From the NCBI GenBank assembly GCA_000091205.1, contig AP006491.2: a stretch of DNA of 64,000 nucleotides; one strand, 5' to 3'. The number at the start of each line of letters is the position of its first letter. Within the stretch, counting starts at the first letter, position 1. A program made the translations under genes and the position numbers. Source of the DNA: Cyanidioschyzon merolae (taxonomy: Eukaryota). Of this stretch, positions 805 through 64,000 are shown piece after piece. Under the pieces are notes generated by a model. It was not told where the DNA came from. It ran no database searches and saw nothing but the letters and a program-made list of their open reading frames with translations.

Positions 805-1752
805 TCAAATGCGTGGCTCCGCGATAGCTGCCAGTTCTTCCAACTCGCGGTCGACGGTCGTGTCAACAGGGCTGCAGGATGCCGCAGTAGCACCCAGTGA
901 CGTGGCCCGTGTACCCCTATCGGCAGACTGGATCGACTGGGGAGGCTCCGGCAGCCGTGCCGCAATACGGTCCGTGCGTCTCGTGAGGGTGCCGGCTTCG
1001 CTGCGCACCTCGACCGCAGCTCGCTCCATACGACCGTTCTGAGCGACCGCAGCACGCGACCGCCCAGGAGCTTGAGCAGCAGCCAACTGGGCCCCCTGGA
1101 TTGGTATTTCGTGGAGAAGGCGGTCCTCATCGACCTCGAACTGGAGTTCCACCATTTGTCGCTCAATCTCACCTTCATCGACAATGTCCGTGGTGATCGG
1201 TTGCTGCAGCGCCATAGTTATCTCGTCGACTCTACCGGTGTGTTCCTGCAAGTCCAACATGGTGCGATCGACTTGTTCCAGAGTCAAGCCCTGATTCATG
1301 CGCTGCAGCACTCCGTTGCCCATTCGTAGCGCCTCGTAGGTTTCCTGGTTATTTCGGGCTGTCTCTATGGCCAGGATTTGCTCTTCGATGCGTTCACGGG
1401 CAGCCATGGTCGTGCGAATCTGCGCCTCCAGTCGCGTTCGTCGCCGCAGACACATCACTGCTCCATCGCGGTTATTCCGTCGAACTTCCTGTCGCGCAGC
1501 CTCCTGTGCTTCCTCTACTCGTCCCCGGAGCAACTGTTCGCGCATATTCAACAAGTTGATGCGCTCACGCATCTGGATGATGGTCTGGCGAACGTCGTCG
1601 CCGGTGACGGCGCCCCGAACACCACCTCTGCCCGCAGGTGACCGTTCCTGGGTGGTACCATTCGTGAGACCTCTCGTCGTTAGCGGGGCTACGGCGCCGC
1701 TGGTCTCCGTGCGCCGCCCACGACGGTTCAACCAGGAAAATAGGTGAGCCAT
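805..1752 (-). CDS. ESCRT-III / Snf7-family (CHMP-like) protein
   Basis: The 315-aa ORF has a charged coiled-coil core (IIQMRERINLLNMREQLL...RRRTRLEAQIRTTMAARERIEEQILAIETARNNQETYEALRMGNGVLQRMNQ...VDRTMLDLQEHTGRVDEITMALQQP...DEGEIERQMVELQFE). Its heptad layout and acidic C-terminal motif are typical of Snf7/CHMP4-type ESCRT-III subunits. Confidence 0.5.
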   Translation of the reverse strand: MAHLFSWLNRRGRRTETSGAVAPLTTRGLTNGTTQERSPAGRGGVRGAVTGDDVRQTIIQMRERINLLNMREQLLRGRVEEAQEAARQEVRRNNRDGAVMCLRRRTRLEAQIRTTMAARERIEEQILAIETARNNQETYEALRMGNGVLQRMNQGLTLEQVDRTMLDLQEHTGRVDEITMALQQPITTDIVDEGEIERQMVELQFEVDEDRLLHEIPIQGAQLAAAQAPGRSRAAVAQNGRMERAAVEVRSEAGTLTRRTDRIAARLPEPPQSIQSADRGTRATSLGATAASCSPVDTTVDRELEELAAIAEPRI

Positions 1753-4700
1753 AGCGCCTTGTCGGTAACGCTACGTTCTTGTGTGAAAATAACCTCTCTC
1801 CTGGAAAACGCTGTACTCGTTGGAAAACCCGGGGTCTCGAGTCACAGACTCGACTGAAGGCCAAGAGACACACTGGCACAAAAAAACGTGTCTTCGTTAC
1901 GCCTGGTCACGTACACGACCGCAGCGGTTCAAGGCGCCCGTGCGAAATGATCCCAGCGGCGCTACACCCCGTAGCGTCCCTGATGCGACAGCAGCAACCA
2001 CAGAAACACACACCTTGGACTCAAGAGCTCACAATGAACAAGTACGCAGGTCGAAAGTCCACGATACCACAGTCTGGCAACGAGACAGCACACACAAGCG
2101 GCAGCGCGAACAAAACGCACACGCTGTCCCTAGAGCTCGGCAGCGCCGGTTACAATTTTTTTTAATTTCATAAAGCGTTGACGAAGGCCGGCATTTCCCG
2201 ATTGACTGCTGGGGCGCTTGATACCAGCGTGCGGAGCAGCATTCATGATTCCACGTCCGACTTCTAAGCTCCATAAGCCATACCGTGTCGTGGGTATACT
2301 GGTTGCTTCGTATATTCTATCGTTTGCTGAGTGCGTGTCCTGATCATCCGCGACACCGCCTATAGCGCCGGTGCGGGCGTAGCACGGCGACAAAACGGCG
2401 TTGCCGTACCTCGGAGGGCGTCTGCTCGAGACGGTAGACAGGTACGCTAGCGCAGCCAGTTGCCCGCCTTTTCTGGCCGGCAGACTGCAGTAGGTTTCAG
2501 CTTGTGCTTGCATACTTCGAGCCTGAGAAGCTGTCCGACAAATCTAGATGGCGGCAGCTCCTTGGGTCCCGTCTTCAGCGCGGCAAAACTCCTGATATAG
2601 ATAGCAGCGTTAAAGTCTCATTTCACAAACTCCATGCGTTTATTGCCGCTGCTCGAGCTGACCAATGGAAGGAGGCATCGGACTCGTGCCCGCTGTGCCA
2701 CTTGGTTCGCTGTCAGCAACTCGTACTTTTCTGTGGCCGAAGGTCTCCGCTGTCTTCTCTCCGTATCGACCCTCTGGCGTGTACATCTGTGCTGATTCCT
2801 TAGATTTTACTTGCTTCATATGAACGCACTTTTTTATGCTCTTAGGTGAAGACCTTCCCCCGGCGAGAGGGACTTGCGGAAGAAAGAAGGCATATGTCCA
2901 AACGTCAGCGTGTGCTAGAAGCCGCAGCGATTCTGTCTGAAGAGCGATCATTACGTTTCAGGACTGAAAACGCTCTTTCGATGGAGTTGAGCCACGGAGA
3001 GTACGAAGGAATGAAAAGCAGCTCTACTCCCGGATAGAATCAGCGAAAAGCTCGAACGCGAAGGGCAATGGTGAAATGCTATGTTGTCCAGTAGAAGGAC
3101 GTCGCCAGACCTGCGGGGAAAAGTCTTCGATCATTCGACGAAAGGGTTGCTGTTGTATGAGCGTTCCCTACGAGCGAAACTCAGGCCGTCAAATGAATCC
3201 ATTCTAGCTAGAACAGATGATGATGTCCTCGTTCTCCTCGAGTTCTACCGAACATTGCACGGGCTCCGTCTCCGCAAATACCCATCTACGCTTCAACCGC
3301 TTCATCCGAAGCAAGTCTCATCGACTGAAACAAACCGACATGACTCCGCTTCATGCTCATCGCGACGTTCCAGCAACGCTATCCTTGCGATTTCGGTGCA
3401 AGATGGTCGCGCGTGAACTACGACTCTTTTTGCGACTATATCCCAGTGTTTTCAGGACGACACGAACAAGCCGTTCAGAAACAGAGACGCCCGTGGTGGC
3501 TGTTACCGTCGCTTTTGCTTTCCATTACATGATCAACGGCTCGTTTTCTATCATTGGCCGAAAGCAGTCTTTCACAGTACCAGTTTCTGGCGCGTGACGC
3601 GTATACTTCTTTCTTTCAGTTTCCCCAACCATCTGAGTGCTGTGGTACATCTGACCTGAATGCGGAATGCAGTCCTCGTTCCACTATTCAGTAAAGAATC
3701 TTTCCTAAAGAAAGTTCGTCGTCAATCTACAATATACATTGCGTAGTGTTTCCGATCTCCTGCAACACACCACGAAAAGCATTCAATTAAATGCAGCGAA
3801 GTTTGAACAATGTTGAGTGGAAACACTATGAACAGGTGGATCTCCTCTGGTCTGGATGCAGCAAGTCGCAGATATGTCGCAGGATGTAACATTTGGTTTC
3901 AGGGAACTGTTATCGAGCTTTGGGACGATTCCAGATCTCCTGAACGCTCTCGATTTGGCATTGTTCTGAATTGTCCATTGCTGCAGCGTATGGACGTGGA
4001 GCCGTTCTCTGAGGAATTCCGATAAAACGCTTTCGAGTGCGTCTCAATTCGACCTAGGCATGAACAGCCGGGGCGTTGGAAGCGCCTCGGAAACGTCAGG
4101 CTGTGTGCAGCATATTAGCATTTGCTTGGGCAGGAAGCAAGGATTCCGCCTCGCATCACCTACATCGAAAGTGATCAAAGCATACAAGCAACGCATTCGC
4201 CAGCTCAAATTCCAAAGTGCCAGCGAATGGACGGCCCAGTCGCGCTGGCGAACCTTGTGCGCAAGCCTCATGAGGAATCCCCAAACCTCTGGCGTATCCT
4301 GGCATCTGCACTTACCGATTCGCTTCACGAACATTCACCCATGCGCCCGCAAGCAAACGCATTCCTGGCAGCAATGCTTTGTATGCGGATATTTCGTTAA
4401 TATCGCAGCTTACAGGTTATCTTTCGCTGCAGCGACAGAACAGGGCATGCCGTGCAGCTCCGGCTGTCGCAAGCTTATTTGCAACCCTTCTCCTGAATCA
4501 CGTATAGGCGACTGCGAACCGGCAACTACAGATTGCAGCTTCCGAGACGCGAACCAGCTTCTAATCGATGCCGGCGACGTTGCTCGCTATCGCACGCTGG
4601 CGGCAGCGCGTACCAGTCTCCCGTCGACGCATGGGGAACGAGCATACGCAATCCAAATGCTCGTGTTTCTGTGCGTCATTTCCAAAATATATAGCTTTGT

Positions 4701-6410: not shown

Positions 6411-8284
6411 GTTACGTAGCCGACGAGCGTACATTGAAGTACATCAGGAGTGCCGGGTTGAGCCCAGATGGAGGCAGAGGGGTACGAGGCCAAGATTGGC
6501 CTTTCGTATGGAGAGAACGAATTAGAGAAATTGGAATCGGGGTAGAATTTCAGGCGATGGAGCTGGTCAATGAATACATTACTTCTCTGAAACGGAAAGA
6601 ATGTCTCTCGGTCGCAGTGCCGAGGCGAGAACGTGTGACGAAAAGCACCAAAGTGAACAACCAGCAGCGAGGGAGACGTGTGCTCCAGTCTCTGGCTTTC
6701 TGCACAGCACTCATTTGCGCCTTTCTGGATTTCCATTATAGTCTTTCACCTTAATTGTATTCCATCATCAGGTGCGTATACTCAAATGCCTTTTCGCATT
6801 TCATAGCCAGAAGTGTTCGGATTGCGTTCATTTTGAAAAAATAAAGAGCCCGATGGAAAGTTACGGACACGAAAGTCGAGGATCCTACAGGGCCATCCTC
6901 GCCAGGTTCCGCTAAAAACCCGAAAAGAATGTTGTTTTTGCCTGTGAACGAGGGAAGAAGAGCAAGTGACAAAGAAGACGAAGATGGAGATGTTGATGGG
7001 TGATAGGCGGGACCAGGTGTTCGCGAGACTCGGCGATAACGAGACTGGAATCGCACTGAGGGCTCGAGCTTTGGCAATTCCTGCATTGATGAGTTCAGCC
7101 ACGGGCAATAAACACAAGGAATTTGTGAATTGAGACTTCAACGCCACCATCATTAGCAGACGCTCTACAGTGCTGAAGACGACGAGACCCGAGGAGCTAC
7201 GGCGATCCGAATACGTGTGGTATCCTCCCAGGCTCGTAGTGAACTGGTAGAAACGGATGCCGATACCAGACTGCCGGTCAAAAATGCAAGGAGTCGTCGG
7301 TGCATGGGTAGATCTATTTATTCACCGTTCTTGTAGAACGTTTTCTGTTTTATTGAGAGCAACGATTATCTTCTGCTGCTGCATCCTCAGCACTTTTCTG
7401 CAGTCACGACAGCAGGCAAGTTTCGGCAGCCGAAAGCGCCCCTGCTGCCGCGTTCTCGATCCGCCATGAAAAAGCGTACGCAGATCATGCGATCCGGACG
7501 AGTGTGCATCTCCGGATGCTTGACTCTAGGTATGCCTATGTATTTGTATGAGTATGTGTGCCAAGAGCTGCAGCGATCTGATCACGAGAGTTACCGCTCC
7601 TCGAAGCTGCATGCGGTACAGCGACGGCTGGTCAAGGCGACAAGCAACCTGCGTACCAGAGGCATACGCTCGTGTACCAGCAGAGAAATTGCGGATGCAG
7701 CCGGGTGTGTACGTTTCAAGCGTTCGTGCACGCTACCAGTGAGCTTGTCGCTTTTGCACCCGACTGAATACAATTGGGGTAACGGACTTACAGGCCTCAT
7801 ACGGGCACTCCAAGTCGCAGATGCCAGCGCACAGGGCCTGCTGGTCGCCGGCCCGTCACACCGCTCGCTGCCTGGAATCGCTTCGTACGCCTTTGCACAC
7901 AGGCAGTGTCGAGGCGAGATCTCCACTAAATTCATGCACTCTACATGGAAACATCAAATGATGCTGCCTGTATGGATCCGAATATCATTTGATGCATCCA
8001 GACATGCTGTCGAATGCGGTGGAAGCACGACGTGTCCGATTTATCTTCCTGGAATGTGCACCAGTGCAGCAAGTACCCGAACGCTTGTTATACGGACGCA
8101 CGCCCTCGCCCGTTTCGTGGCGATGATTCCGTTTCCAGTGGCTAGCAGCGTCATGAGACTGGTATCCTCCCCGAGCGCCGGTTTGCTGAGGTCACTACAT
8201 CCCTTCCGTTCTGCCTGCATCCAGGCAAAACGCGGGCGCACAGCGCCCCCATTTCCACATCCGATACCGACACATCCATCTGGA

Positions 8285-17044: not shown

Positions 17045-19071
17045 ATTGCCAGGTCTCAGCTCGCGCTCGCTGCGTGTCTTCGTGCCGCGCACACACCACA
17101 ACACCAACACGCAGTCAACGTCGCGTGTGGCAGGCATCGCTCGTCGACGCCTACCGTCACGACGCCGCCGGCGATGCGTCGCCGACGCCGCACGCATCGC
17201 GTTTTTGGTGCGTGCATGCGTGCGTGCTGGACGCCCGGCGCTGCGGCATCGAGCATCGTCGACGGTGCAGCGATCGGGGCAGCGAGATGCGGTGCGCGCA
17301 GACCTGGACATCATCGCCTCGGATGCGTCGCGAACGTTCGATTTTTTTCATAGACAAGACGTTTACTTGTGCCAGCTTTCTCCGATTATGCGCATTTATG
17401 TTTTCTTACCTCTTTTGTGTGTTATTTTTTGTGCGCGGTGAGGTATCCATCAAACGTCCTACCTCCAAGTTACATTACCTATACTGATTCTCGGATATTC
17501 TGGTCGTTTCATACGTTCTATCGGGTGCGCTTAGTACCTAACCTAATCATACGCCTTTGGAACTTAACCGCTGGAGCAGATAGTTCATAGAGTTAGGAGG
17601 GCTTTTCCATACCACAGAGGGCGTCGGTTCGAGGCGTGGTTCACCCGACGTAGAACTGGGATTCGTCGTCAGTGTGTGCTCGGACAGTCTGCGGATGCAG
17701 GCTTGCCTTCGCTGCACGACACGCTGGAGAAACTTCACTGTTAGGATATATCGTGGGGGCCGCCTCTCTCCTTCGTGATCATGCATGGAATGCGTTGTTG
17801 TCGGTTGGCAATGCGGGTTTGTGCTCGACACTCATACAGAAGGTAGGCGCAGAAAGCGCACTAAACCCGTGTGCGCATCCGATTCGCTGGACCATCCGCC
17901 TAGAAGGTAGCATGTGAGTTTGTTCGCCACTAGTGAGCGCTGAGGCTCTGTTAGCGGACCATCAGTTGCCAGTGCTGCACTCAAAGTGAGTGTCCGGCCG
18001 TCGACTATCACGGTGATGCCCAGCTGCTGCTGTCCTTCAAGGAGATCGCTGCGCTCCTGCTTTCAGCGCGGCCACTGTAACAGTAAATATGTCAGCGTCT
18101 CGGGGATCTCGTCTCGACAGCAGGGACAGTGTGATTCCCAGTGCGATTCCAGTGCTCCTATCCGGCTTAGAGCCGGTGCTGCTAGTCAGAAACCACCAAC
18201 GTGGATTTTGGCGAGCCACTGGGTACCGCGAGCAAGTCCCGGGAATTCCAGCGCCTCCCACCAGTACTTGCATGTGTATGCTAGGTTGTAGTTCCGGTAT
18301 AGAGTCAAGCCGGCGTTACGGGCGCGACTGGTTCCGTGTCTACGTTCCCATATTGGTGTTCGGACCGTTCGCTTGAGGCGTCTGAAGTCTTCTACATTCC
18401 TGGGGAACGATTGGAGCGGACAGCCTGCTTCTGGGCGTCGCGCTGGTCCGAGTGGACTCCGAGTACGTCGCTTCGTGCTGCTGCAAGCATTAGGTCTGTC
18501 TGCGCAGCTTACTGGCTCCCAGCATGATTATGTAGTCCGAACCCGTATCCAATGAACCACAACTTGAGGCGACGCCCTCACTGGCATGGCAAAGCCGTTC
18601 TGTCTCCGTGCCGCATCTGCTCCAGGGGTGTAAGCGCGATTGCGAATGCTCAAGGAAGGTTACGTGCACAGTGGAATGCACGAAATAACCAGTACATCCG
18701 AAAGGAAGTACAAGTAATGGAACCTGAAGGTAGGGTCCAGCAGCATGATGGGCGCTTTCCCGAATGTCAATACCGATCTATCGCGCAATCTGGCCTCCAT
18801 GGTCCATAGAAGCGCTTTGGCATCGGCGGGAGAACCGGGCGTCGCCCCGCGCTGCGCTCCATGGAACAATGCTCAAATCACGAATAAATTGTACTTTATT
18901 AAATCTGTATGTACTATGATGTACAAAATAGCATTCCAGGAATCCCGAGATCACACACGCGCTCGAGACGTGAACTGTCTCGTCACTCTCGGCTACGGCT
19001 TCATCTTCCTCGTATTTCTTCGCCATTAGATACGAGTGCGGTAAGATTCTGGGCTGAAGTTTTCAATATTA

Positions 19072-24880: not shown

Positions 24881-25126
24881 GGAGCAGGCGAGCGGACCAA
24901 CTCCAACCGGCCTGCGCAGTTTCGCGTACCCCCAGCAGACACTTCGGAAACGCCCGACAAACAGCCGCTCCTGGCGTCCCGGGTGCGAAACGCCTCGCGC
25001 ACACAGACGCGTTCGTGCTGCACACCCGTGTCGACTTGAGCTCGCGGGCGCAACGAAGCCAGCCAGACTCGGTCTCGAATCAGCAAAGAGGTACCCCTCG
25101 CCAAACGCCATTCTTAAGTCGAACGA

Positions 25127-25860
25127 CGCCAGCGGTGTACAGTAGTGGCGACCGGGCCGCCCTAGAAGAAATGTCTCCGACTGATGTGCAGAAGCCTGCC
25201 CGTCTTTTTGGACCGGCCACCTACTACTGCTTCAAACTTTTTCTCATATAGTTTAACTTTGAGCGGTTTTCCAACCAAATTCTCTATCGTCGACCCGAGA
25301 GGTCTTTCCTCTCTCACCGCACATTTCCTTATATTGATTGCGGCGTTAAAGTCTCGGTTCACAAACTCCATACGTTTCTTGCCATTGATTGTACTTACTA
25401 ACGCAAGCAATCCTCGAACTTTCGCTATCCTTTCCATTTGCTCTTCTGTCAGCGGTCCGTACTTTTTTTATATCCTCAGGTCCCCGCTGGCACTTTTCCA
25501 TCTCGACCCTCTGAAGTGTACAGCCCAGTTCATGGTGTGTATACAATGCTCGAAATCCATCTACCGGTATTATAACAAAACGCCGTGCGCACTCCTTATA
25601 CGTTCTCGTCGTGGGATCTGGTGTACACCCTTGTTGGGTCGTCCAGCGCCTTGCTTCGTACGCTACTACGAGCCTTTGACTTTCATCCTCCTTCAAGGCA
25701 CTCAACTCACTGAAAAAAAAATGCGAATGCCCGATACTCCCTACATTATAGATTCATGCGGAGATCAAACTGCCCGCCATCCGAGATTGCATGTACGGAT
25801 CTCAGCGCTCGCGTCGGAAGCATCGGCAGTGGACGAGCGCCTTGTTGTGCACTGCCTGTC
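25127..25860 (-). pseudogene. Inverted, frameshifted fragment of the TnpB/Fanzor-like nuclease 3' region (RuvC-III end) plus its ~160-bp 3' flank
   Basis: Minus-strand ORFs 25346..25705 and 25162..25437 together reproduce [53 protein letters not shown]...PEDIKK...[19 protein letters not shown] from the full copy at 29.5-30.0 kb. They sit in two different frames because of 1-bp indels, and amino-acid identity is about 80%. Homology to the reverse complement of 29480..30132 starts sharply at 25127. Confidence 0.75.
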
Positions 25861-25891
25861 CACTGGACACGCAAGGTACTTTCGTCGGAAC

Positions 25892-27904
25892 ATGGGCGTT
25901 GAGAATGCTTTAGGCGGTTTCATAGTAACGAATACCTTCAGCGGTAGCGGTGTACGTTTCGTCGTACGGAACCGGAGCCAGTGCAACTCGCTGGTGGTGC
26001 CTGGGTTCCGCGCGAGGCGGCGTACGCGCTGCGGAGCACTTGCTCGCGTACGGGGGACAGATTCGGCGCCAGAGGGTACCCCCGACGCCGAAGCGAGGCA
26101 CCGTCCCAAGCCTGGTGAGCGAGGGCTCTTCCCGCTCGTTGCACCGCGTGAGGATATCGGGCGCTATTTCGTTGGAGAGCGTCGGATTTTGGACGAACGC
26201 ACAGCGCGCTATCCGCTACGCTCGACGGTAGAGGAAGTGCTGGCGGGCATTACGGTGGCGATGGCGCTGCTGCCTGCGGCGGTGTCTTGCGCGTTGGCCA
26301 CGGGCGTGCCGCCGCTCGCTGGAATCGTCTCGACTGGTCTCCTGTGTGCGATAACTGCCGCACTGGGAGGACGCCCTGGCATGATCTCAGGAACATCTGC
26401 AGCGCTCATTATTCTGCAAGCGCCTCTCTATCAACAGTACGGCGCAGCAGCGGTCGCTGCCGCCGTGGTGCTCAGCGGTATACTCCAGCTTTTCTTCGGG
26501 ATCTATCGTTTGGGAAAGTTTGTGCGGCTGATATCGTACCCTACCTTTCTGGGATTCATCAGCGGCATCGCCATCTTGACGGCGACAAGTCAGGTCTATG
26601 CGTTTCAGCTTCCAGCGGGAACCGGGCTGAGCCCGGGCGCACCCTGGCTCCAGGGTAACATGTTGCGTGCAGCGTTGATCGTCGCAGCGCTCGCCGCTGG
26701 AGTCGCCCATGTATGGCCCTTGATCATTCAGCGACTACAGCGCCGGCGCCCCGATAGTACCCATCGGTGGCAGCACCGCCTCGCTGAGCTGTTGCGTTGG
26801 CTCCCAAGCCCACTAGCGGGCATCCTCGTGGCATCCATTTATGCGGAGGTGACGCAAGCGCCTGTGCGGCGGCTTGGCGACTTTTTGCGCGACACGCTGG
26901 CACAGTCAGGGGCCATTGGCGTATCCTGGGCAGCCCTGCCGTCAACACCGCTGGCATGGATGGCCATTCTGAGCACCGCGCTTGGTCTCGCATTCATCGG
27001 TCTTTTGGAATCTCTGTTAACCATGACTTTGGTAGACGAAGTCACGGAATCGAGGGGTAGCACGCGTCGGGAGTGTCTAGCGCTTGGGGCAGGGAATATC
27101 GCCGCGGGCTTATTCGGTGGCGTGGGCGGCTGCGGCCTCCTGGGCCAGTCGCTCCTGAACACGAAATCAGGGGGACGCGGGCGTCTCTCTGGACTGACTG
27201 CGGCGCTGTGTCTTCTCGTGTTGGCGAGAAATCCGAGCGGACTGATGATTCGGATTCCCGTCCCAGCCATTGCAAGCCTTATGGTGCTGGTGGCGCTGGG
27301 CTCGTTCGAATGGGCATCGCTGCGCTTGTTTCGTGCCATACCTCTCGCTGATTCGCTGACCATTGTGAGCGTTGCCCTGATGACTGTAGCAACGCGCAAC
27401 GTCGCCCTGGCGGTCCTGTTTGGTGTGGTATTCTCGGCGCTGGTCTTTGCCTATAAAGCGTCGCGACGCATTACCGCCCAGAGCTTTATTTCGGAGGACG
27501 AGCAAACGCGCGGATGGCGGGGATACCGGATTGACGGTCCGCTGTTCTTTGGCACGGCGGAGCGCTTCAGTCGTCTGTTCGACCCAGCACGGGATCGTGC
27601 CGAAGGCCATGAGCACGTGATCATCGACTTCTCTGGTAGCCGCATCTGGGACGCGACAGCGCTAGAGGCGCTAGACTCCCTAGCCCGTCAGTATAGGAGC
27701 TATGGTATTCGGCTGCATCTGTGGGGTCTGTCTCGAGATAGCGCACGTCTGCTGCGCGAGGCACGCGCCTACATCGACGAGAGTGTCACGAACGAGAAAG
27801 CGCTCTACTTGTACGAGCGGGTTGTAGCCGACTATCCCACAAACGATAGTCTAGAGGTTGAGTACGAGCTTTTCGCGAAAAGAGAATCGGGGAATGCAGC
27901 GTAA
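25892..27904 (+). CDS. SulP/SLC26-family sulfate (anion) permease with C-terminal STAS domain
   Basis: VEEVLAGITVAMALLPAAVSCALATGVPPLAGIVSTGLLCAITAALGGRPGMISGTSAALIIL is the SulP N-terminal signature. About 10 further TM segments follow, then a STAS-like end (YRIDGPLFFGTAERF...HVIIDFSGSRIWDATALEAL). The stop is TAA. I chose the start at the ATG at 25892, because the 5' 236 codons of the long ORF are antisense to the Fanzor-like fragment. Confidence 0.8.
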   Translation: MGVENALGGFIVTNTFSGSGVRFVVRNRSQCNSLVVPGFRARRRTRCGALARVRGTDSAPEGTPDAEARHRPKPGERGLFPLVAPREDIGRYFVGERRILDERTARYPLRSTVEEVLAGITVAMALLPAAVSCALATGVPPLAGIVSTGLLCAITAALGGRPGMISGTSAALIILQAPLYQQYGAAAVAAAVVLSGILQLFFGIYRLGKFVRLISYPTFLGFISGIAILTATSQVYAFQLPAGTGLSPGAPWLQGNMLRAALIVAALAAGVAHVWPLIIQRLQRRRPDSTHRWQHRLAELLRWLPSPLAGILVASIYAEVTQAPVRRLGDFLRDTLAQSGAIGVSWAALPSTPLAWMAILSTALGLAFIGLLESLLTMTLVDEVTESRGSTRRECLALGAGNIAAGLFGGVGGCGLLGQSLLNTKSGGRGRLSGLTAALCLLVLARNPSGLMIRIPVPAIASLMVLVALGSFEWASLRLFRAIPLADSLTIVSVALMTVATRNVALAVLFGVVFSALVFAYKASRRITAQSFISEDEQTRGWRGYRIDGPLFFGTAERFSRLFDPARDRAEGHEHVIIDFSGSRIWDATALEALDSLARQYRSYGIRLHLWGLSRDSARLLREARAYIDESVTNEKALYLYERVVADYPTNDSLEVEYELFAKRESGNAA

Positions 27905-28399
27905 AGACAACGGGCATCGCTAGAGGGCATCGCAGAGGAGCAACGGACCCCCGCAGGGCGCGAGCGGGTCGTGCGCTCGCTCCTGTATCATTTTCGGTGC
28001 CGTTTGGTTACATCCGCTTACGCAGATCGATAAGTCGAAACAGACAGCGGTGATTGCCAAGCATCGCGTCGTTCCTGTGCGCCCGAACGGAGATGTTGTC
28101 AGCGTTCCGCTCCGCAACGTTCCATCCATTGCACCGAAGTGCGCCCCGTCGACAACACATTCCAGCGTGGGATCAGGCGCACGAAGTTTCCCTGGCACAG
28201 CAGCAGTGACGGACATCAAAACAGTCGAGGTTTCGGAAGCGTTTTCGACAGGACCTTGATTTGTCGCCTGATGCTTGGCACAGGGGAAACGCGGAGGGGA
28301 AATGAGCGGGTTCATGCCCTCCACGAGAATCACGCCGAGTACCGCCCTGAGGGTACTCGATTCAGGGGTGATTCGGATCTTTAAACCTACGGGACGATC

Positions 28400-30132
28400 A
28401 AGTACCATACGGACCTGAAGAACCATTTGACGATGAACCTCGAACGCTTCATGAAACGCTCCGTCTATGCACTCTACCCGGGCATCGCTCGCAAAGGAAT
28501 ATGGGCGATTATCAATGGCATCACGAAGGATTGCCAGAATGAACAGGAGATCGAATTCTTCGACAAGAAGACATCACGCAGGAGAAAGAATGAAGCTCCT
28601 GTAATCCATTGGGTTATACAAGAGCATCGTGCCGTACTGGGGCTGGCGAACCCAACAGAAAAGTTATCAGAGATGAAAAAAAGATAAGAAAAGATACGAT
28701 CGCCTCATCCTGCGCTATTTCGTGTTCCTGGACCAAGGACTGGAACGCGAGGCATAGATGAAGCTGAGTGAGGAGAAAAATGATGCGTCGGAGAAACGAA
28801 AGGCTTTCCTAATGGGGAAGCACCCTAACGTCGTTCCGTTGAACAACATCGAGTCACACTGTGTGACTATCGACTCCAGAGTCCTTCAAGGCATCATGAA
28901 GGAGATCAGTCCCGAGTTCGATGTTAGCAGGGAGGAGTTCTCCGGTGAAAATCGGGAGATGTACGGGAAGAACATCTTCGATGTCAATCGTCTCAAAGTG
29001 AGCAAATAAAAGGTATTCGCTGGGATGATCGAAACCGATGGAGTAGCCATGTGTGTACAGTATCGGAGGTTGAAGGTGGATCGTCCCATCGCGCCTTGGG
29101 CTTCGCCCGTGACGAAGCATGAAGATAAGATGGAGATGGGCCCTGAAACGTGTAATCCCCAGGATAACGACCTTGTCGTTGGCGCGGACCCCGGGAACAC
29201 GAATATCGTAACCATCGCAGTACCCAAGCGTGCGGAAGATGGCATTGACGGTAACTTGCCTCAGAAAGACATGCGTCTGTTGAGATTCTCGAGAGCGAGA
29301 TACCATCGAGAATCGGGAATCATGAATGCAAGCAAGAAAATCGAGACGTAGAATGCAGGAATGAAAGAGCACCTGGAAGCTATGACCAAGTTGACTAGCC
29401 GAGGAGCGGACTCGGAAGCTTTTCGGAAATTCATGGAAGTTCGTGTTGCTCACTGGAAGGCGCTGTGGAAAGAGTATACAAAGTCCCGGTAGGCTTGTCT
29501 GCGTATGAGTCTATTCCGTGGGATGCAGCGGGCGTTCGCAAACTTTTTCAATGGGTTGAGCGCCTTGAAGGAGGACGCAAGTCAGAGGCTCCTGGTAGCA
29601 CACGGAGCAGGGCGCTGGAAGACCCGAAAAGGATGTACACCAGCTCCAACGACAAGAACGTACATGGAGTGCGCAAGGCGTTTCGTTACGATACCGGTAG
29701 ATGAGTTTCGAGCGTCCTATACGTACCATGAACTGGGGTGTACGCTCCAGAGAGTCGAGATAGAAGAGTGCCAGCGGAGCCCTGAAGATATAAAAAAGTA
29801 CGGACGGCTGGCGGAAGAGCAAATGGAAAGGAGGGCGAATGTTCGAGGACTACTTGCATCAGTAAGAACAACCAATGGCAAGAAACGTATGGATTTTGTG
29901 AACCGAGACTTTAACGCAGCCGTCAATATAAGGAGATGTGCGGTGATGGAAAGAAGACCTCCAGGATGAACAAGAGTGAACTTTGTTGGACAATCATCTA
30001 AAGTGGAACTATATGAGAAAAAGTTGAAACGAGTAGTAGGTGGCCGGTCGAAAAACCTGGGAGGCGTCTGCACATCAGTTGGGGACGTCTTGTCTAGGGC
30101 GGGTTTCCCGCCACTACTGTGCACCGCTGGCG
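28400..30132 (+). mobile_element. TnpB/Fanzor-like (OMEGA-type) element: nuclease gene plus a conserved 3' terminal non-coding region; the left boundary is approximate
   Basis: Sampled stretches here are 53-57% GC, about 4 points below the window average, with A-rich Lys codons. The nuclease ORFs run 28427..29969. The conserved 3' flank 29970..30132 is also present, inverted, at 25127..25290, and homology breaks sharply at 30132. Confidence 0.65.
28427..29969 (+). CDS. TnpB/Fanzor-like RuvC-fold nuclease (putative RNA-guided endonuclease); the reading frame is interrupted, so it is possibly a pseudogene
   Basis: RuvC-I-like motif [17 protein letters not shown] in ORF 29025..29351. C-terminal region [57 protein letters not shown]...[23 protein letters not shown], with the TnpB/Fanzor VDEyRTS-like and RuvC-III DxNAAxNI signatures. 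28758..29969 is a single frame broken by in-frame TAA (29007) and TAG (29349, 29490). The N-terminal Lys-rich ORF 28427..28687 is in another frame. Confidence 0.6.
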
Positions 30133-30222
30133 GCAGCGTTTTTCTTTGAAAGGCGTGCGGTGTGCGCAGCATATCGACATAGTTCGTTATCGTGCACCAT
30201 AGTCTCTGTTCACTGCACCGGC

Positions 30223-45728: not shown

Positions 45729-47859
45729 AATTTGAGTTGCGGCCACGGCGCGCTACACGCTTTCCAGAGTCGGTAGCGAGCGTTCTCAGCATGGACTGAG
45801 GTGACTGCGTCCAAGCTGATGTCGCTTTGCAGTTCGCGGAGCTTGTGCGATGGCCCCGGTGGGCCTCACAGAGAAGACGGCGGGAGAGTCGATGTTGGCA
45901 GGCCAGTGCGCGGCGCGAAAAACCGCCACCTGGACGGGGATGACGCTAGACGCTGCGCCCTGCACCGCATGCTGGCAGATCGGGTACCCGCTGGGGATTC
46001 AGGGTTCGCACTGAGCATCATTCGTTGGACAAGGAGCGCCGACTTGTGTCATGGGGCACGTTTCGCCCCGAACGATGCCGCGCTCCGTTGCTAGGTTTCT
46101 GTTTTAAAGCATCAAGAAACGGTCGGAACGAGAAACTCGTGACGACGCGTGGGTAGTTGACCGACACGAGCCCCTTAGCTGCCGCGCGGTTCGCGTCGAA
46201 GCCGCCCGTTCCAGAACCGAGTGCCGCCATCGACCAGAGCAGAAAACCTCGCAGGCTTTCGGGGATAAGCGCACCGTTGCGCCACCGTCGGCGCTTGTCT
46301 TCGTCAGCGTCAGAGCAGTGAATTCCGGAATGCCTGTGTTAGCACGCCCTTTTTGCCGTTGCATGTCTCGTGCGCAGATTCCAACACCATGAATGAATCC
46401 TCTGGAGGGCCGCAGAGAGACTGCGTGTTATCACTGCTAGCTTGCGCAAAATGCTCGCACGTGTGCAAGTCAGTTTTTCCACGGGCAGCACGTGGATCAG
46501 TCGCCATGCTTGTAGCGCTCATGTGGAACGTCAAGCACCGAAAACGAAACGTACCCAACAGTTTCTATACGACTGTATGCTCGTCAAATCATCCGGCTCC
46601 CTATGTTCTTCGATGAAACACTGTAAAAGATGCCGCAAGATCTTGAGGTTCCGTACTGTAGACAGGACCGGCAATGAAGAAACATAGACAGACAAAAGGA
46701 AAAGCGCGCGTCTGCCGGAGAACGCCGCGCGTTGAACGACGCATGATCAGTTCCGTCCTGAAAAGCGAACGCCTGTTATCGAAGGGCCTGGTGGTCATCT
46801 CAAGCGATGAGACTCGATTCAGCGGAAATAGTAGACCTGAATACGGGTACCCACAGAAGAGCAGACCGCACATCCTTAAAAGTGCCCAGCGAGCATTCCG
46901 TCAAAATCAGTCCCAGCGGCGATTCAATCTTGTAGATGGGTGCAAATCACCAAACGGGCAGGATTCTTTGAGATCGCATCTTTCATTGAATCACCTTGTC
47001 GTCGCTCTTTCCCTTATTCTTCTGTTCTGCTGCCAGATAACTTTCCAACATTCAACTGCGGCTGCAGAACACGCAGCTGAGCTCGGCAACGAGCTGCTCT
47101 TCGTGTCAACTGCTTCTCCCTGGTCCAATCCAGTCGAAGCCGTCTTCGCTGGTGTCAAACGCCATTTATACGCTAACCGATCAACAGATAAGTCGTTCTC
47201 TACCCTCACCAGCCCTGTAGTGCTGTTTATCTCCACTGTTCTTGCGCAGGCGGGAGCGGAAAGACCCGCTCCACACTGTGGGCATACTCATCACGTTGAG
47301 AGTGAAGAAAGGCACTGGAGTATTGATAGGCACAAACGCGCATCGAAGAGGCGAGCTTTGGAAACACCGTCCATCCAGTACGTCCGAACCCCGAGGGAAG
47401 ACACAAGTACAGAGTATACCAACCAAAACAATACATCCCAGCCAAGTAGAGGAGAGGGCGAAGGAGCTGGTCTCTGTAACCAAGCACGAAGCATTCGAGC
47501 AACACCGCGAGTAGCATTGGCAGAACTGGTTCAAGGTCTCTCGTTTACAGTGACGATGGAGACAGACACGATATGCATCTGCTTGCACTGGGTGAACCAT
47601 TCTCCTGAAATGAGCAAATCGATTCATGTTCAAATGCTCCCGGTACATGAAGACGGAGACTTGTCGATGAGCGTAGATTCCGGCTAAAAAAGGCGTCATG
47701 GCCGTCGTCGTATCCCCAAATGAAGAGGACTGAGCCACAGACTTGGATGGTGAGCAGATGAAGCGGCTCAGCAATTCCAGGAATCCGTGGTACAGTCTGT
47801 CGGGCATGATGAACCCCGGGAGACATTCCACCACTTCGAATGACGGCGACAGGACCCGC

Positions 47860-48300
47860 TCGCCGTTCTCGGGCCTCTGAACATCGCATCGAACAGGATT
47901 GGATGCTTTATATGCTTTTGTCGGCGGGTAAAGTAATGGATCATATAGATGATCTTCGGTCGGCGTCCATGAAGCCACACGTATGTCGGCGACAGTTTCA
48001 GTCGTCCAGAGGCCAGCAGCGTGCAGTCGTCAATGTCTTGCATGCAATGAATAAGAAAACGACCGAAAAGTCGTATCGTTTCCTGGTAGCATATGGCGCT
48101 GGACGTGCCGTAGCGCGCAAGGGCTGCACTCCTGCTCCGCCCGGACCAGAGCATTTAAGGTGTGTAGGAAAGGATTCTTTACGATTCCAACCGAACCGCT
48201 CAGGATGACATGTGCGCATCACGAGCACGAGTACAAGCAGAGACTCGTAAAGAGAAAGCAGATGAAACAGCGCGGGGTGCCTTTTGTGGTATACGGTGCG
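47860..48300 (+). pseudogene. Third, heavily degraded fragment of the TnpB/Fanzor-like nuclease gene
   Basis: ORF 47840..48208 contains [50 protein letters not shown]. This parallels [49 protein letters not shown] in the 29.5-kb copy. ORF 48160.. continues frameshifted with FTIPTEP.RMTCAHHEHEY, matching [20 protein letters not shown]. Confidence 0.45.
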
Positions 48301-49060
48301 CTCACCGAACGTCAGATGGAAGGCCAGTCACAGCGGAGAGGCCTGCCCTGCAGCGATTCCGCCAGCAACCGTGCGCGCACGCATCTACCGCTTCGAGATT
48401 TGAACGCCCCGAGCAGCGTTGGGAAACGCCTTGGAATTCCGAAGTATCCAGCTGCTCTACCTCAAGCGAACTTTCCATGGCATCGTTTAGGACTCCATGC
48501 AGGCATCGTACTGAATCACCGAAGACTTTCGATGGAAACAACTCAGTCGCAAGTGGGGACAGGGCTGGATGCTCGCGTGCAGCTCGGCACTCGAATGCCA
48601 CAATCCAGCAATGCATCGAGGCTGGAGTGCTGCACGCAAGGATCTACACAGGGAACAATGGCCCGGTGCACTTGATCAGACATCATCGTGTCCGACAATT
48701 CGATACGTTTGCGTATGTGCGTCGACCGTTGCCGTAAATGGATTATATACGCGTCTTGATGACAAGCTGACGCATGTTGTCCAGATGCAGGTCGAGATGC
48801 CTGCTCGCGAATCCCGATATGTCTCTACCGTTGACGCCGTGGCAAGCGCGCCTCCGCAGCGATGCACGGATGCTGCGTGTGCGTGGCACGCATCCGTCAC
48901 GTGACATCATCCGTGTATCGCGGTGCGTGGCAGCACTCTGTGGACACGACGACGCGGGATGCACATGCATCCCGGCGTTTGCTTCGGATGTCTATAGAGC
49001 GTCCGTTTTTTTCGTCTTTTATCGATAGGTGAGTCTGGATCGGATGCTGAACCTGGGCCT

Positions 49061-52000
49061 TTACCGAGTCGACGCTGCAGACGTCGCATTCCGAAGCGAG
49101 TCCTGGGCCAGCAGAGAACGCTCGGTTAACAGACCAGCACGCACGACGCGTACTGGTTTCTTCGGTGTATTGCGGGGGCGGTTGCTTCCTACCTCTTCGA
49201 TGCGTCGAATCGTGTCCATACCGTCAAGAACCTGCCCCAAAGGCACGTATTTGCCGTCCAGATACCCGGCATCGGAACCGGTCGTGATGAAAAACCTGCC
49301 GTCGCCCTCGTTGCGGTCGTTGCGGACCAAACCGACCAGACCTGCACGATCGAAGCGCAAGCGCGGAGCTTCTAGTAACCATCGTTCGCTTCGGGGCACT
49401 GGGTCACCCGCTTGCAACGTCAGTCCCGGCACAATGCGGTAGAATGACGTGTTCGTGTACCTGTGGATACAGCAGTCGAGGAAATGTGCACTCGACACAG
49501 GCGCCACCTCGCCAAAGACTCCAATAACGATTCGACCAGCCGGTTGGCCATCGATCTCAATGTCGAGGTAGCAGCGGTCAGTGATCTGTGGGGCCAAGTC
49601 GTCCAGCGCCTTCAGCGCAGAGTCGCGCTTCGCGCCATTCGATTCGCTCGCAGCCAGAGCCGTGCTTTGCAGTGACATCGTTCGAGCTGAGGCAGCTGCT
49701 GTAGGCGGCGTACCGTTAGACAGCTGATGCTCCACAAATCTCTGCAGTGGAATGTCGGAGGCGTTGCAGGTTTGCCAAGATTCGGGTGCGCGTTCCAGAT
49801 GCGTACCTACGAACCCTGATGGCAATGCGTCTGTGTCCGCTGCAGAAGCAATGACAACAGCGGAAGCAGACTTTGGCAAAGAAGCTCTTGTTGCTGTTGG
49901 CGCTTCTGGACGGGCCTCAGCAACACGACCTGGACCTGGCATTGGAGCCATTGCAGCGTCGACAGAGGCGAACGGCAGCCATAAACTCAACGCGCTCCAG
50001 GCTACGGCCAGGATGATAGCACTTGCCTGAAATGGCACTTGCTTACGTCCAACCGAATCCGAGGAGCGTGCACCACCACCGGAAGGCGCACCAGTAGCGG
50101 TCTCGTTGCGCGTAGCACCAGCGGGGGTATCCCCATGCGACTGGCGTTGGATGGGTGCACAGGCGCGTTCCAGCCACCGAAGAACAGCGGTCTCGTTACG
50201 TTCCTTCAAGCACGGTGCAATGCGTTCATACACTTCACGATGATAATGATTCAGCCAGGCGATCTCTTCATCAGACATCTGATCCAAGTCTAGTAAATCG
50301 GTGGATATCGGGACCATGGTCAAACGCTCAAACCCCAGAAACCGCTGACCACCAAAACTGCGCGCCGTCTCTACTGGTCGAACCACGAGCAGATTCTCAA
50401 TCCGAATACCAAATTCGCCATCCTCGTAGTAGCCGGGTTCGTTACTTAGAATCATGCCTGGTCGTAAGCCAACCGATGCAGCGTTCATTCTCGGAGAGAT
50501 GCTCTGCGGGCCTTCGTGGACGTTCAGCGCTGCCCCGACACCATGCCCCGTGCCGTGGCGATAATCCAGACCCAGACCCCATAGCGAGCGTCGAGCAAAG
50601 CTGTCCAGCAGTGTACCAGGGGTATTCTCTGGGAACACCGCCGTATCAATCGCAATATGGCCCCGCAGCACGCTCGTGTAGCAGCTCCGCACGTACGCGT
50701 CAGGTTTCCAAGTCGTGCGTTGTCCGCCGAGGAACAAAGTGCGCGTTACGTCCGTGGTACCGTCGACGTACTGGCCGCCAGAATCCAACAGGAGCACGCT
50801 ATTCGGCTCCCAGGTCCGACATTCATTCGGATCCGCGCGGTAGTGGATAATGGCGCCATTCGGACCGAGTCCCGCGATCGTATCGAATGAAGTGAATAGG
50901 AATCCTGATTCTTCGGCGCGAAACGCGGTGAGCCTCTCCGCGATGATGTGCTCATTCAATGCGCTGTACTTGGAGCTATCTTCACTGATCCGCTCCACCT
51001 CTGATTCCAGCCAGTGAAAGAACCGGCAAAGAGCGACTCCGTCACGAAGATGTGCCGCACGCATCCCAGCTAATTCCACGTCATTCTTGATCGCTTTCAT
51101 CAACGAGAGCGGTGTGGTATGCAGATACACTGCCTGAAGGCGACGTCGGAGGATCGCTGGATCCTCTTGAGCGGCAACGAAGCTATCCGCATCCAAGCCA
51201 GCGGCATGAAGCAGCATAGCCAACGAGACACTCGAAGGATCCATCCACAGGCGCTGCTTGCCTGGGCCGTAGTGTTCCCGTAGATACGATGCACACGCTT
51301 CATAGGGGCGCGTCTGAACCCCGTTCGCACGCAAATGTTCCTGGACGGCGACAGCGTTCGCCCCATCAAGTTTGGATGTGTCTACGAACAGTAGTGCGTC
51401 GCCCTCGCGGGGTACTAGGCCGTATGCCAGCACAACCGGACAATGTGGGATATCCTCCCCGCGAATGTTGAAAAGCCACGCAACCTCATCGAGCATGGAC
51501 ACGAAGACGCCGTCGACTCCTTCAGACATTTTTTGCCGGATTGCGGCAATTTTCTCCGCTGTAGATTGCCCAGCGTACTCCAGTGGATGAACTCGTACTG
51601 GGTTCGTCGGTAGCGACGGGCGCTTTGCTCCCCAGATCCGATCGACTGGGTGAGCCACAGCCTCCGGCAACGGCACAAGATGGATATCGAGTTCGAGCAC
51701 CCGGGAAACCCAGGCGTAGTGATGCACAAGCGGGTCGATGCCGACGCGATAGATACGACCAGCGCGTCTATGTTCACGGGAGCGTTCGGCGAGAAAATCT
51801 TCCAAAGTTGGCGTACCTGGCGTGCCCGTCTTCATGAGTCGCCAGCCCTCGGGCAGCTGCCGCTCAGCCTGAAGGAAGTACCGGCCATCCGTCCAAAGAT
51901 ACGCCTCCGCGTCGCTGCTGGTCACCAGGGCGGTCCCGGCGGAACCAGTGAAGCTCGTGAGGAACTCGCGTCGCGCATAGTGTGGCGGAGGATACTCCGA

Positions 52001-52315
52001 CTGATGCGGGTCTGCAGTTGGGACAATGAAAGCGTCGAGTGACTGTGAACGAAGCCAGCCTCGAACTGCCTCAACTTTGTCCGCAAGCGCAAAGACGTGG
52101 ACGTGTTTTCGATGTTGCCTTCGCGGTGTCTCTTCTTGGGGTCGATCTCGTACGAGCCTTTCCTGTCGCCTCGAACTTCGAAACCTGGTCCAGAGAAGCC
52201 GTCTGTTGCTTGGCGCTCCAGGAGCAAACGGCCGCCGCGTTACCAGACTGAGGCAACGACCGAGTTGTGGCTGCGACAGCCGTCCCGACGCCACGCTACC
52301 TGTGTGTAACCACAT
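49061..52315 (-). CDS. Xaa-Pro aminopeptidase P (M24B metallopeptidase) continuing without a stop into a C-terminal cyclophilin-like PPIase domain
   Basis: N-terminal APP domains (FIVPTADPHQSEYPPPHYARREFLTSFTGSAGTALVT...WTDGRYFLQAE). M24 core (HGTGHGVGAALNVHEGP...SNEPGYYEDGEFGIRIENLLVV). APP C-terminus (LRWLERACAPIQRQSH). About 200 aa of linker with one hydrophobic segment. Then a cyclophilin-like block (YLDIEIDGQPAGRIVIGVFGEVAPVSSAHFL...FYRIVPGLTLQAGDP...GDGRFFITTGSDAGYLDGKYVPLGQVLDGMDTIRRIEEV). Confidence 0.7.
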   Translation of the reverse strand: MWLHTGSVASGRLSQPQLGRCLSLVTRRPFAPGAPSNRRLLWTRFRSSRRQERLVRDRPQEETPRRQHRKHVHVFALADKVEAVRGWLRSQSLDAFIVPTADPHQSEYPPPHYARREFLTSFTGSAGTALVTSSDAEAYLWTDGRYFLQAERQLPEGWRLMKTGTPGTPTLEDFLAERSREHRRAGRIYRVGIDPLVHHYAWVSRVLELDIHLVPLPEAVAHPVDRIWGAKRPSLPTNPVRVHPLEYAGQSTAEKIAAIRQKMSEGVDGVFVSMLDEVAWLFNIRGEDIPHCPVVLAYGLVPREGDALLFVDTSKLDGANAVAVQEHLRANGVQTRPYEACASYLREHYGPGKQRLWMDPSSVSLAMLLHAAGLDADSFVAAQEDPAILRRRLQAVYLHTTPLSLMKAIKNDVELAGMRAAHLRDGVALCRFFHWLESEVERISEDSSKYSALNEHIIAERLTAFRAEESGFLFTSFDTIAGLGPNGAIIHYRADPNECRTWEPNSVLLLDSGGQYVDGTTDVTRTLFLGGQRTTWKPDAYVRSCYTSVLRGHIAIDTAVFPENTPGTLLDSFARRSLWGLGLDYRHGTGHGVGAALNVHEGPQSISPRMNAASVGLRPGMILSNEPGYYEDGEFGIRIENLLVVRPVETARSFGGQRFLGFERLTMVPISTDLLDLDQMSDEEIAWLNHYHREVYERIAPCLKERNETAVLRWLERACAPIQRQSHGDTPAGATRNETATGAPSGGGARSSDSVGRKQVPFQASAIILAVAWSALSLWLPFASVDAAMAPMPGPGRVAEARPEAPTATRASLPKSASAVVIASAADTDALPSGFVGTHLERAPESWQTCNASDIPLQRFVEHQLSNGTPPTAAASARTMSLQSTALAASESNGAKRDSALKALDDLAPQITDRCYLDIEIDGQPAGRIVIGVFGEVAPVSSAHFLDCCIHRYTNTSFYRIVPGLTLQAGDPVPRSERWLLEAPRLRFDRAGLVGLVRNDRNEGDGRFFITTGSDAGYLDGKYVPLGQVLDGMDTIRRIEEVGSNRPRNTPKKPVRVVRAGLLTERSLLAQDSLRNATSAASTR

Positions 52316-58294: not shown

Positions 58295-58675
58295 TTTCCG
58301 AGGCAAGGCGTTGTCTGATGGACGCCATCCCGATGAGCGATATCCATTGAGCAATCGGGGACCTATGGTCAGAATAGGCACACGATCGATCAGAGAGAAA
58401 GCCTGTTGGCGAGTTCACAGGCGAAGCAAGGCGTTGTCTGATGGACGCCATCCCGATGAGCGATATCCATTGAGCAATCGGGGACCTATGGTCAGAATAG
58501 GCGCGCGATCGATCAGAGAGAAAGCCTGTTGGCGAGTTCACAGGCGAAGCAAGGCGTTGTCTGATGGACGCCATCCCGATGAGCGATATCCATTGAGCAA
58601 TCGGGGACCTATGGTCAGAATAGGCACACGATCGATCAGAGAGAAAGCCTGTTGGCGAGTTCACAGGCGAGGCGC
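58295..58675. repeat. 123-bp tandem repeat x~3
   Basis: Unit ...caaggcgttgtctgatggacgccatcccgatgagcgatatccattgagcaatcggggacctatggtcagaataggcacacgatcgatcagagagaaagcctgttggcgagttcacaggcga... with atggacgcc at 58318, 58441 and 58564. It is open on both strands (41-aa units). Confidence 0.85.
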
Positions 58676-63237: not shown

Positions 63238-64000
63238 CCCGTGAGCATTGAGTACGAGTATCCCACCTGAATCCCGAAACGAAACAAGGCGGACGCGGGA
63301 TGGGAAGGTTCCACGGGAGGCGGGGCGCTCGTCAGGAGCGTCTCACGCAGGGCACGGCACAGCACAAGCGCTCGTGCATGAACAGCACCGCCCGCGTCTT
63401 CTTGGTAGTACGAGGTCTCGCGTACCTGAGGCGCACGCGAGTCCACTGATTCGCGCACCTCGTCACTGGTGGATCCCGAGCAAACGCCTGCGTCAGGAAT
63501 CAGCGGTACATGCGATAAACGTCCACCGAGGAGCGACTCGGCACCCGAGAACCAGCCTCAAAACCACGTTTCCCGAATCGTCGTGCAGCGCTGGCATGCA
63601 TGCAGCCATGCGTCGTAGTCTTGTGGAGCAGAAACTGACGACAGGATCCCGCCCTGCATCGGGTTGGCGCCCTCAGTTGTATGGCAGCGCTGTTCTGTTT
63701 CCGTGATGCATCGGCCCCAGCGTTTGAGGCGCCATTACTGGTGCCCAAAGCAGGCACTCGGCGCACATTAGAGCGAACAAAACGACCAGTGCATCCGAAA
63801 GGAAGTACAAGTAACGGAACTTGGAGGTAGATGCGTCACGATGGACACATTCTCCAAATCCAGCATCCGTCCGGCAGTCTGGGATCCGTGGTCAATTACA
63901 GACGTTTTGTCATCGAAGTAAATCAGCGCACGCACACGCACGCTCGTATCCTGCAGCGCATGGACCGGGGCGCTGTGTGCCGGGTGTCGCCGCCAATGCG

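Follow-up and report, generated by a model that had tools for sequence, protein, structure and literature searches.

Fanzor1 proteins are eukaryotic, TnpB-like nucleases of the RuvC type that are carried on transposons, and the characterised members are guided by an omega-RNA encoded by the element itself. In Cyanidioschyzon merolae, a single Fanzor1 family has been described, CMe-1A, an element of 3169 bp present in about 150 copies that individually match the consensus at about 80% identity, some of them still intact; it has no terminal inverted repeats (TIRs) and was left without a class (Bao & Jurka 2013, Mobile DNA 4:12, PMC3627910). PUl-1 and PGv-1, described in the same work, are mariner-type elements that carry Fanzor1 (PMC3627910). 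We report here a degraded Fanzor1 locus of C. merolae which, with a probability of roughly 0.85, is not a worn CMe-1A but a Fanzor1 pseudogene of a deep sister lineage of that family, one that diverged while coding and then died.

The window, by which we mean the whole stretch of 64,000 nucleotides analysed, had been predicted to hold three copies of a Fanzor-like element. The three copies are there, but at least five Fanzor-coding remnants are present in total, the extra ones lying at 2453-2785 (-) and 7041-7292 (+). The proposal of a multi-copy family is likewise true, but had been published in 2013 with the approximately 150 copies of CMe-1A (PMC3627910). The remnants of the window are the following, numbered as used below:

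28206..30155, plus strand: copy 2, the reference copy, a CMe-1A truncated at its 5' end and with a complete 3' end (86.8% nucleotide identity to consensus 1215-3169)
25127..25764, minus strand: copy 1, a CMe-1A 3' fragment (84.6% nucleotide identity to consensus 2507-3145; 81% to copy 2)
47479..48474, plus strand: copy 3, the Fanzor1 remnant under study
2453..2785, minus strand: an extra CMe-1A 3' fragment, Fanzor amino acids 615-726, with one stop (71% nucleotide and 51% amino-acid identity to the consensus)
7041..7292, plus strand: a decayed CMe-1A 3' fragment, Fanzor amino acids 646-723, with two stops
2257-2430, 2785-2512, 6737-6926, 7082-7182, 17458-17909, 18825-18413, 58316-58617 and 63915-63668: other pieces of CMe-1A or TE-N2_CMe, matching the consensus

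Copy 2 is itself a Fanzor1 pseudogene with one frameshift and about seven stops (tblastn against P0001 and CMe-1p), and the piece at 6737-6926 corresponds to consensus 786-968. Debris of the CMe-1A family is unusually abundant in these 64 kb. The fragments at 17458-17909 (+), 18413-18825 (-), 63668-63915 (-) and 2257-2430 (+) derive from the non-coding 5' region that CMe-1A has in common with TE-N2_CMe, with 73-81% identity, and 58316-58617 consists of three tandem units spaced by 123 bp, each resembling positions 21-76 of the CMe-1A/TE-N2_CMe consensus at 77% identity. Copies 1 and 2 stand head-to-head around a sulfate permease gene with their 3' ends outward, and the open reading frame 25184..27904 (906 aa) is the annotated 670-aa permease with an upstream extension read from the strand antisense to copy 1. 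The 5' truncation points differ between fragments (consensus 2748 for 2453-2785, 2507 for copy 1 and 1215 for copy 2) and the 3' end is kept; together with the lack of TIRs, this is less typical of cut-and-paste than of insertion by a one-ended or replicative route. In an alignment of 65 loci (A3), two types of 3' terminus were seen: '...CGCTGGCGGCAGCGTTTTTCTTTTGAAAGGCG' in the published consensus and in copy 2 (consensus 3130-3169; window 30127-30155), and '...GGCGTCGTTCGACTTAGAACGGCGTT' in copy 1 and many environmental copies (window 25085-25135).

What copy 3 encodes corresponds to a Fanzor1-type protein without its N-terminal half. A third degraded Fanzor-like fragment had been flagged at 47860-48300; it is real, and the remnant is larger than that interval. 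When 46.5-49.1 kb was compared with the remaining window by tblastx, two colinear matches to copy 2 in two different frames were obtained with a joint E=3.6e-19, the one aligning 48008-48163 with 29517-29672 (46% over 52 aa), the other 48145-48369 with 29652-29876 (31% over 75 aa). With an HMM derived from 12 intact relatives, 47500-48500 scored 49.9 bits, while the best of 300 dinucleotide-preserving shuffles of the same interval had 2.8 bits (shuffle mean -2.5, sd 1.1). A chance similarity to the Fanzor family is thereby ruled out, and the homology claim, for which shuffled controls had been proposed as the check, survives it with a significant alignment. The peptides quoted in the original prediction were found in the open reading frames 47840..48208 and 48160..48675, and its view of a frameshifted remnant of the nuclease family to which the element at 28.4-30.1 kb also belongs is supported. 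Profile searches in all frames resolve copy 3 into five colinear pieces:

47479..47556, plus strand: piece 1, preceding RuvC-I, with two in-frame stops (diverse-family HMM A2 positions 293-319)
47538..47687, plus strand: piece 2, beta-strand 'FTVTMETDTICICLHW' and RuvC-I 'SVDSG' (HMM A2 positions 321-376)
47740..47832, plus strand: piece 3, 'MKRLSNSRNPWYSLSGMMN' against 'LTRkqYYkESGifkA' of the family (HMM A2 positions 385-415 and a colinear tblastn match with P0001)
47933..48148, plus strand: piece 4, within the open reading frame 47840..48208 (HMM A1 36.3 bits, positions 292-362; the 46% tblastx match over 52 aa to copy 2)
48136..48474, plus strand: piece 5, RuvC-II and RuvC-III, within the open reading frame 48160..48675 (HMM A1 45.6 bits; HMM A2 positions 516-608)

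The pieces alternate in frame and run from position 293 to 608 of the 633-position profile, a span that takes in RuvC-I, RuvC-II and RuvC-III; the N-terminal part of about 290 profile positions is missing. The match of piece 1 is weak by itself (i-E 0.008 against the whole window) and colinear with the others. Piece 2, aligned with 'FTGTIETDGVSVCIH...vgiDPGr' of the family, is in the frame of the open reading frame 46674..47687. In all, four frame changes separate the five in-frame pieces, and about five in-frame stops are present. Two of the three catalytic residues are still in place: the RuvC-I aspartate ('SVDSG', codon 47676-47678) and the RuvC-III aspartate ('LRDLNA', 48397-48399). At RuvC-II, the multiple alignment has 'TIPTEPLR' in copy 3 for the family 'TIPVDEFR', so that 'TEPLR' replaces 'VDEFR' and the catalytic glutamate is now a proline (48196-48198). 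The D...E...D triad of the family is thus broken in copy 3, which is consistent with an inactivated relic.

The family itself was placed through its proteins. The conceptual protein of copy 2, searched against 5.8 billion proteins, returned 199 close relatives, every one of them unannotated, and an exhaustive HMMER search gave 1468 representatives. The motifs GxDPG, VDEFRT and NRDxNAA contain the residues D318, E490 and D559, which do not vary among the 42 diverse, full-length members that were aligned. Neither the protein of copy 2 alone nor a shallow 12-sequence profile yielded anything useful against Pfam and PDB; the Fanzor1 structures were reached only with the diverse 42-sequence profile, which matches the three solved Fanzor1 proteins along most of its length, from REC/WED through RuvC-I, II and III and with the D-E-D residues conserved (Parasitella parasitica 9cf0, E=5.2e-22; Spizellomyces punctatus 8gkh, E=2.9e-13; Guillardia theta 9cer, E=1.2e-4). 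An AlphaFold2 model of P0001, made from a shallow alignment, has a pLDDT of 38, too low to support the assignment at the level of the fold. By these profile matches, the family of copies 2 and 3 is assigned to Fanzor1, copy 3 entering it by its HMM score (49.9 bits), and the label 'Fanzor-like' given at the outset was correct. With bacterial TnpB (IS200/IS605, IS607) the family has in common the RuvC-type D-E-D core, and 16 of the 42 members match the Pfam model Cas12f1-like_TNB, which P0001 does not and which copy 2 reaches at E=0.26. It differs from TnpB by its eukaryotic host, a far longer N-terminal region and the lack of a TnpA partner, the relationship being detectable through Fanzor1 profiles only. 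It also departs from the characterised Fanzor1 proteins. A C4 zinc ribbon between RuvC-II and RuvC-III is a Fanzor1 motif, and CMe-1 was classed as Fanzor1 nonetheless (Bao & Jurka 2013, PMC3627910); at this place CMe-1p reads 'TSYTHHELGC...EKC', two histidines and two cysteines instead of the canonical CxxC...CxxC. Copy 3 differs further in having lost the catalytic glutamate and half of the protein.

In C. merolae 10D, the family is a multi-copy mobile element of a eukaryote, and at least 286 related loci were found in a few metagenomes. In environmental Cyanidioschyzon, an identical 449-aa Fanzor protein (P0017) adjoins different host genes, IF-2 on contig L004 and a DAO oxidoreductase on L009, within elements that are 98% identical at the DNA level, a placement that indicates recent mobility of the family. 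Some environmental copies (L004:2475-2777 and L001:6465-6694; P0002/P0003) carry tandem duplications of 75 bp, or 25 aa, with the acidic sequence 'VVDAMKHEEKKEASLETQKVQDN', just before the RuvC-I motif and in variable copy number.

Upstream of copy 3, a relic of another kind was found. The open reading frame 46674..47687 (+) is identical to the 'hypothetical protein' CYME_CMI060C (BAM79963.1) of C. merolae 10D, located on a chromosome of 810,151 bp, and the neighbouring sulfate permease and RCC1 genes match this strain too. The original prediction had seen in this frame no recognisable function and perhaps a further remnant of the same insertion. The latter holds for its last 50 codons or so, which are the Fanzor RuvC-I region of piece 2; the former does not, the middle of the frame being one of two DDE relics found in the window:

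46773..47198, plus strand: probable relic of a Tc1/mariner/IS630-type DDE transposase, 'VISSDETRF...LLFVSTASPWSNPVEAVFAGVKRH', in the middle of CMI060C (Pfam DDE_3, E=1.1e-5 and 3.3e-6)
2908-3469, minus strand: a second, better preserved DDE_3 pseudogene of mariner/IS630 type (E=3.4e-15, 56.6 bits, profile 2-140)

With 27.5 bits, the first relic stays just under the cut-off of 28.6, and it covers profile positions 88-140 only; 'SSDETRF' and 'NPVE' are recognisable in it, and the second aspartate motif is degenerate ('CCQITFQH'). Its identity to the second relic is 28% over 134 aa (E=5e-9); with the mariner transposase of PUl-1 it is 24%. Relatives of the second relic occur on environmental contigs (L066:7958-8506 and L022:119-478). 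The gene annotated as CMI060C is therefore chimeric, a DDE relic joined to a Fanzor RuvC-I relic, both of them dead transposon sequence. The open reading frame 47181..47978 (-), which had also been suggested as a possible remnant, matches nothing, and its antisense position relative to the relics leads us to regard it as spurious. No Rfam family or tRNA was detected in scans of the 64-kb window. Further downstream, 49061-52315 (-) is a long intron-less frame for an M24 Xaa-Pro aminopeptidase fused to a C-terminal cyclophilin domain, with 1084 aa from the first ATG; an environmental ortholog was called at 954 aa.

Copy 3 could be taken for an ordinary, much older CMe-1A whose divergence from copies 1 and 2 arose entirely by neutral decay after insertion, as the original prediction implied when it read the copies as one element in different states of decay. 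Copy 3 does share with CMe-1A its host genome, protein family and domain order, and its best blastx matches are CMe-1-like proteins, with which it has in common an 'HHE' segment replacing the first CxxC and a clade-specific insert of about 20 aa ('YGALTE.QME') before 'RGLL'; moreover, the copies of the window form a graded series of 87, 85, 71 and about 60% nucleotide identity. At the DNA level, however, blastn of copy 3 (47.5-48.5 kb) against the CMe-1A consensus gave no match at E<0.01, and by the usual DNA-based criteria for TE families (about 80% identity to the 3169-bp consensus, which copies 1 and 2 exceed with 84.6% and 86.8%) copy 3 would not be classed as a CMe-1A copy. A codon-guided alignment of 177 codons gives 34% amino-acid and 49% nucleotide identity to CMe-1A, with 53, 59 and 34.5% at codon positions 1, 2 and 3, so that third positions are saturated and first and second positions are not. 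When CMe-1A codons were decayed neutrally in simulation until their amino-acid identity equalled that of copy 3, about 61% nucleotide identity was predicted, spread evenly over the codon positions, and 5.8 stops per 177 codons were expected; the 181 C-terminal codons of copy 3 hold none (P=0.002). Copy 3 is also no closer to CMe-1 (33%) than to two divergent relatives, P0122 and P0124 (33%), and a motif that it shares with P0122, P0124 and P0181, but not with CMe-1, places its motifs nearer to the former. A milder third-position deficit is seen in other CMe-1A copies as well, which makes the difference of copy 3 one of degree. Among 5.8 billion proteins, a search that needs shared 5-residue words found no closer or intact relative and returned only the host frame CMI060C; the separate lineage is therefore argued from codon statistics and a few shared motifs. 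With no stops and saturated third positions, most of the divergence of copy 3 arose while it was coding. The reading as an aged CMe-1A is thus improbable, and the notion of a later decay state of the same element is not supported. For a deep, separate lineage, amino-acid identity to copy 2 is no measure of the age of copy 3 as a corpse.

The neighbourhood of this sister-lineage pseudogene invites another explanation, in which the DDE relic at 46773-47198 and copy 3 are the halves of one ancient composite mariner-type transposon, with transposase and Fanzor1, resembling PUl-1 of Pythium or PGv-1, which could be the autonomous ancestor or the mobiliser of CMe-1A. As in PUl-1, a Tc1/mariner-like DDE relic lies directly upstream of copy 3 on the same strand and in the same gene order, mariner plus Fanzor1 elements with the DDE-then-Fanzor order being published (PMC3627910), and the DDE relics are 24-33% identical to the PUl-1 transposase. 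Each of the two DDE_3 relics of the window is followed directly, on its own strand, by a C-terminal Fanzor fragment (46773-47198 then 47479-48474; 3469-2908 then 2785-2453), but the fragment directly downstream of the relic at 2.9 kb is plain CMe-1A, a solo-ORF element. The copy 3 locus differs from PUl-1 and PGv-1 by the lack of TIRs, the inverted-repeat search of 45.5-49.1 kb having found no credible ones, of TA duplications and of the Fanzor N-terminal half, whose roughly 290 profile positions would need to fit into about 310 bp. The linkage is also absent from 80 related environmental Cyanidioschyzon Fanzor loci (about 690 kb): only two of them have a DDE_3 relic nearby, both in arrangements other than DDE-then-Fanzor, and a general DDE_3-Fanzor linkage was rejected. 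TE relics are clustered in this window regardless. The adjacency at copy 3 may be coincidental, probably reflecting a chance clustering of TE debris, and we regard a composite as unlikely; that the two relics are all that is left of an autonomous mariner-type Fanzor1 transposon ancestral to the unclassified, TIR-less and apparently non-autonomous CMe-1A is quite unlikely. It is most improbable that the 46.7-48.7 kb region encodes a functional or domesticated protein, even though the annotation of C. merolae 10D includes CMI060C (337 aa), the frame of this gene is intact in two environmental strains and frames of 122-337 aa persist in the region. The frame of CMI060C joins pieces of a DDE and of a Fanzor gene that both lack their remaining domains; its DDE_3 score is under the Pfam cut-off, and the Fanzor frame is interrupted four times. 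A syntenic environmental Cyanidioschyzon contig (L092) matches the region over 12.65 kb with 99.4% identity. Within the locus, substitutions relative to this contig are densest in the Fanzor part, with 15.1 differences per kb (a comparison based on 15 substitutions), against 12.0 in the flanking spacer and 3.1 in the adjacent M24-cyclophilin gene. The synonymous to nonsynonymous counts in three relic frames are 1:7 (CMI060C), 1:4 and 1:6, all small numbers. Copy 3 now evolves without constraint, the substitution counts agreeing with the frameshifts; it is inert and has no function today.

From published Fanzor1 work and the homology found here, intact members of the family would be RNA-guided RuvC nucleases, with an omega-RNA presumably produced from the 3' end of the element. 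Two conserved hairpins near the CMe-1A 3' end, 'GGCGTC...GACGTC' and 'GGCGGG TTT CCCGCC' (window 30050-30125, A3 columns 208-261), overlap the end of the Fanzor frame and are candidates for putative omega-RNA elements. In these hairpins, 80.8% of cells are paired, against 37-65% for slid partners; the covariation is weak, with 15 double changes that 19 of 500 shuffles also reached, and RNAalifold found no consensus structure on 65 CMe-1A 3' ends. No comparable hairpins are recognisable after 48474 in copy 3. The ancestor of copy 3 would have been such an active RNA-guided nuclease, and its lineage would have split from that of CMe-1A while still coding. Copy 3 has lost the N-terminal half and the RuvC-II glutamate and has gained about five stops and no fewer than four frameshifts, presumably after its insertion. 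It now drifts neutrally, 3' of an equally dead mariner/IS630-type DDE relic.

For the annotation of C. merolae, the 'hypothetical protein' CMI060C is to be read as the remains of two transposons. Copy 3 suggests that this genome once had at least one Fanzor1 lineage beyond the single CMe-1A family on record. If true, a composite ancestor would give CMe-1A an origin and a candidate mobilising enzyme. The practical value of these observations is modest, and the current understanding of Fanzor biology is unchanged by them. More generally, where a TE family evolves under coding constraint, the amino-acid identity of its copies is no guide to how long they have been decaying. The Fanzor1 ORF has been remarked to have been under selection for a long time (Bao & Jurka, PMC3627910). 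The codon-position pattern over all copies fits that remark, and long selection on the Fanzor1 ORF fits in turn the now-known role of a nuclease that benefits its element.
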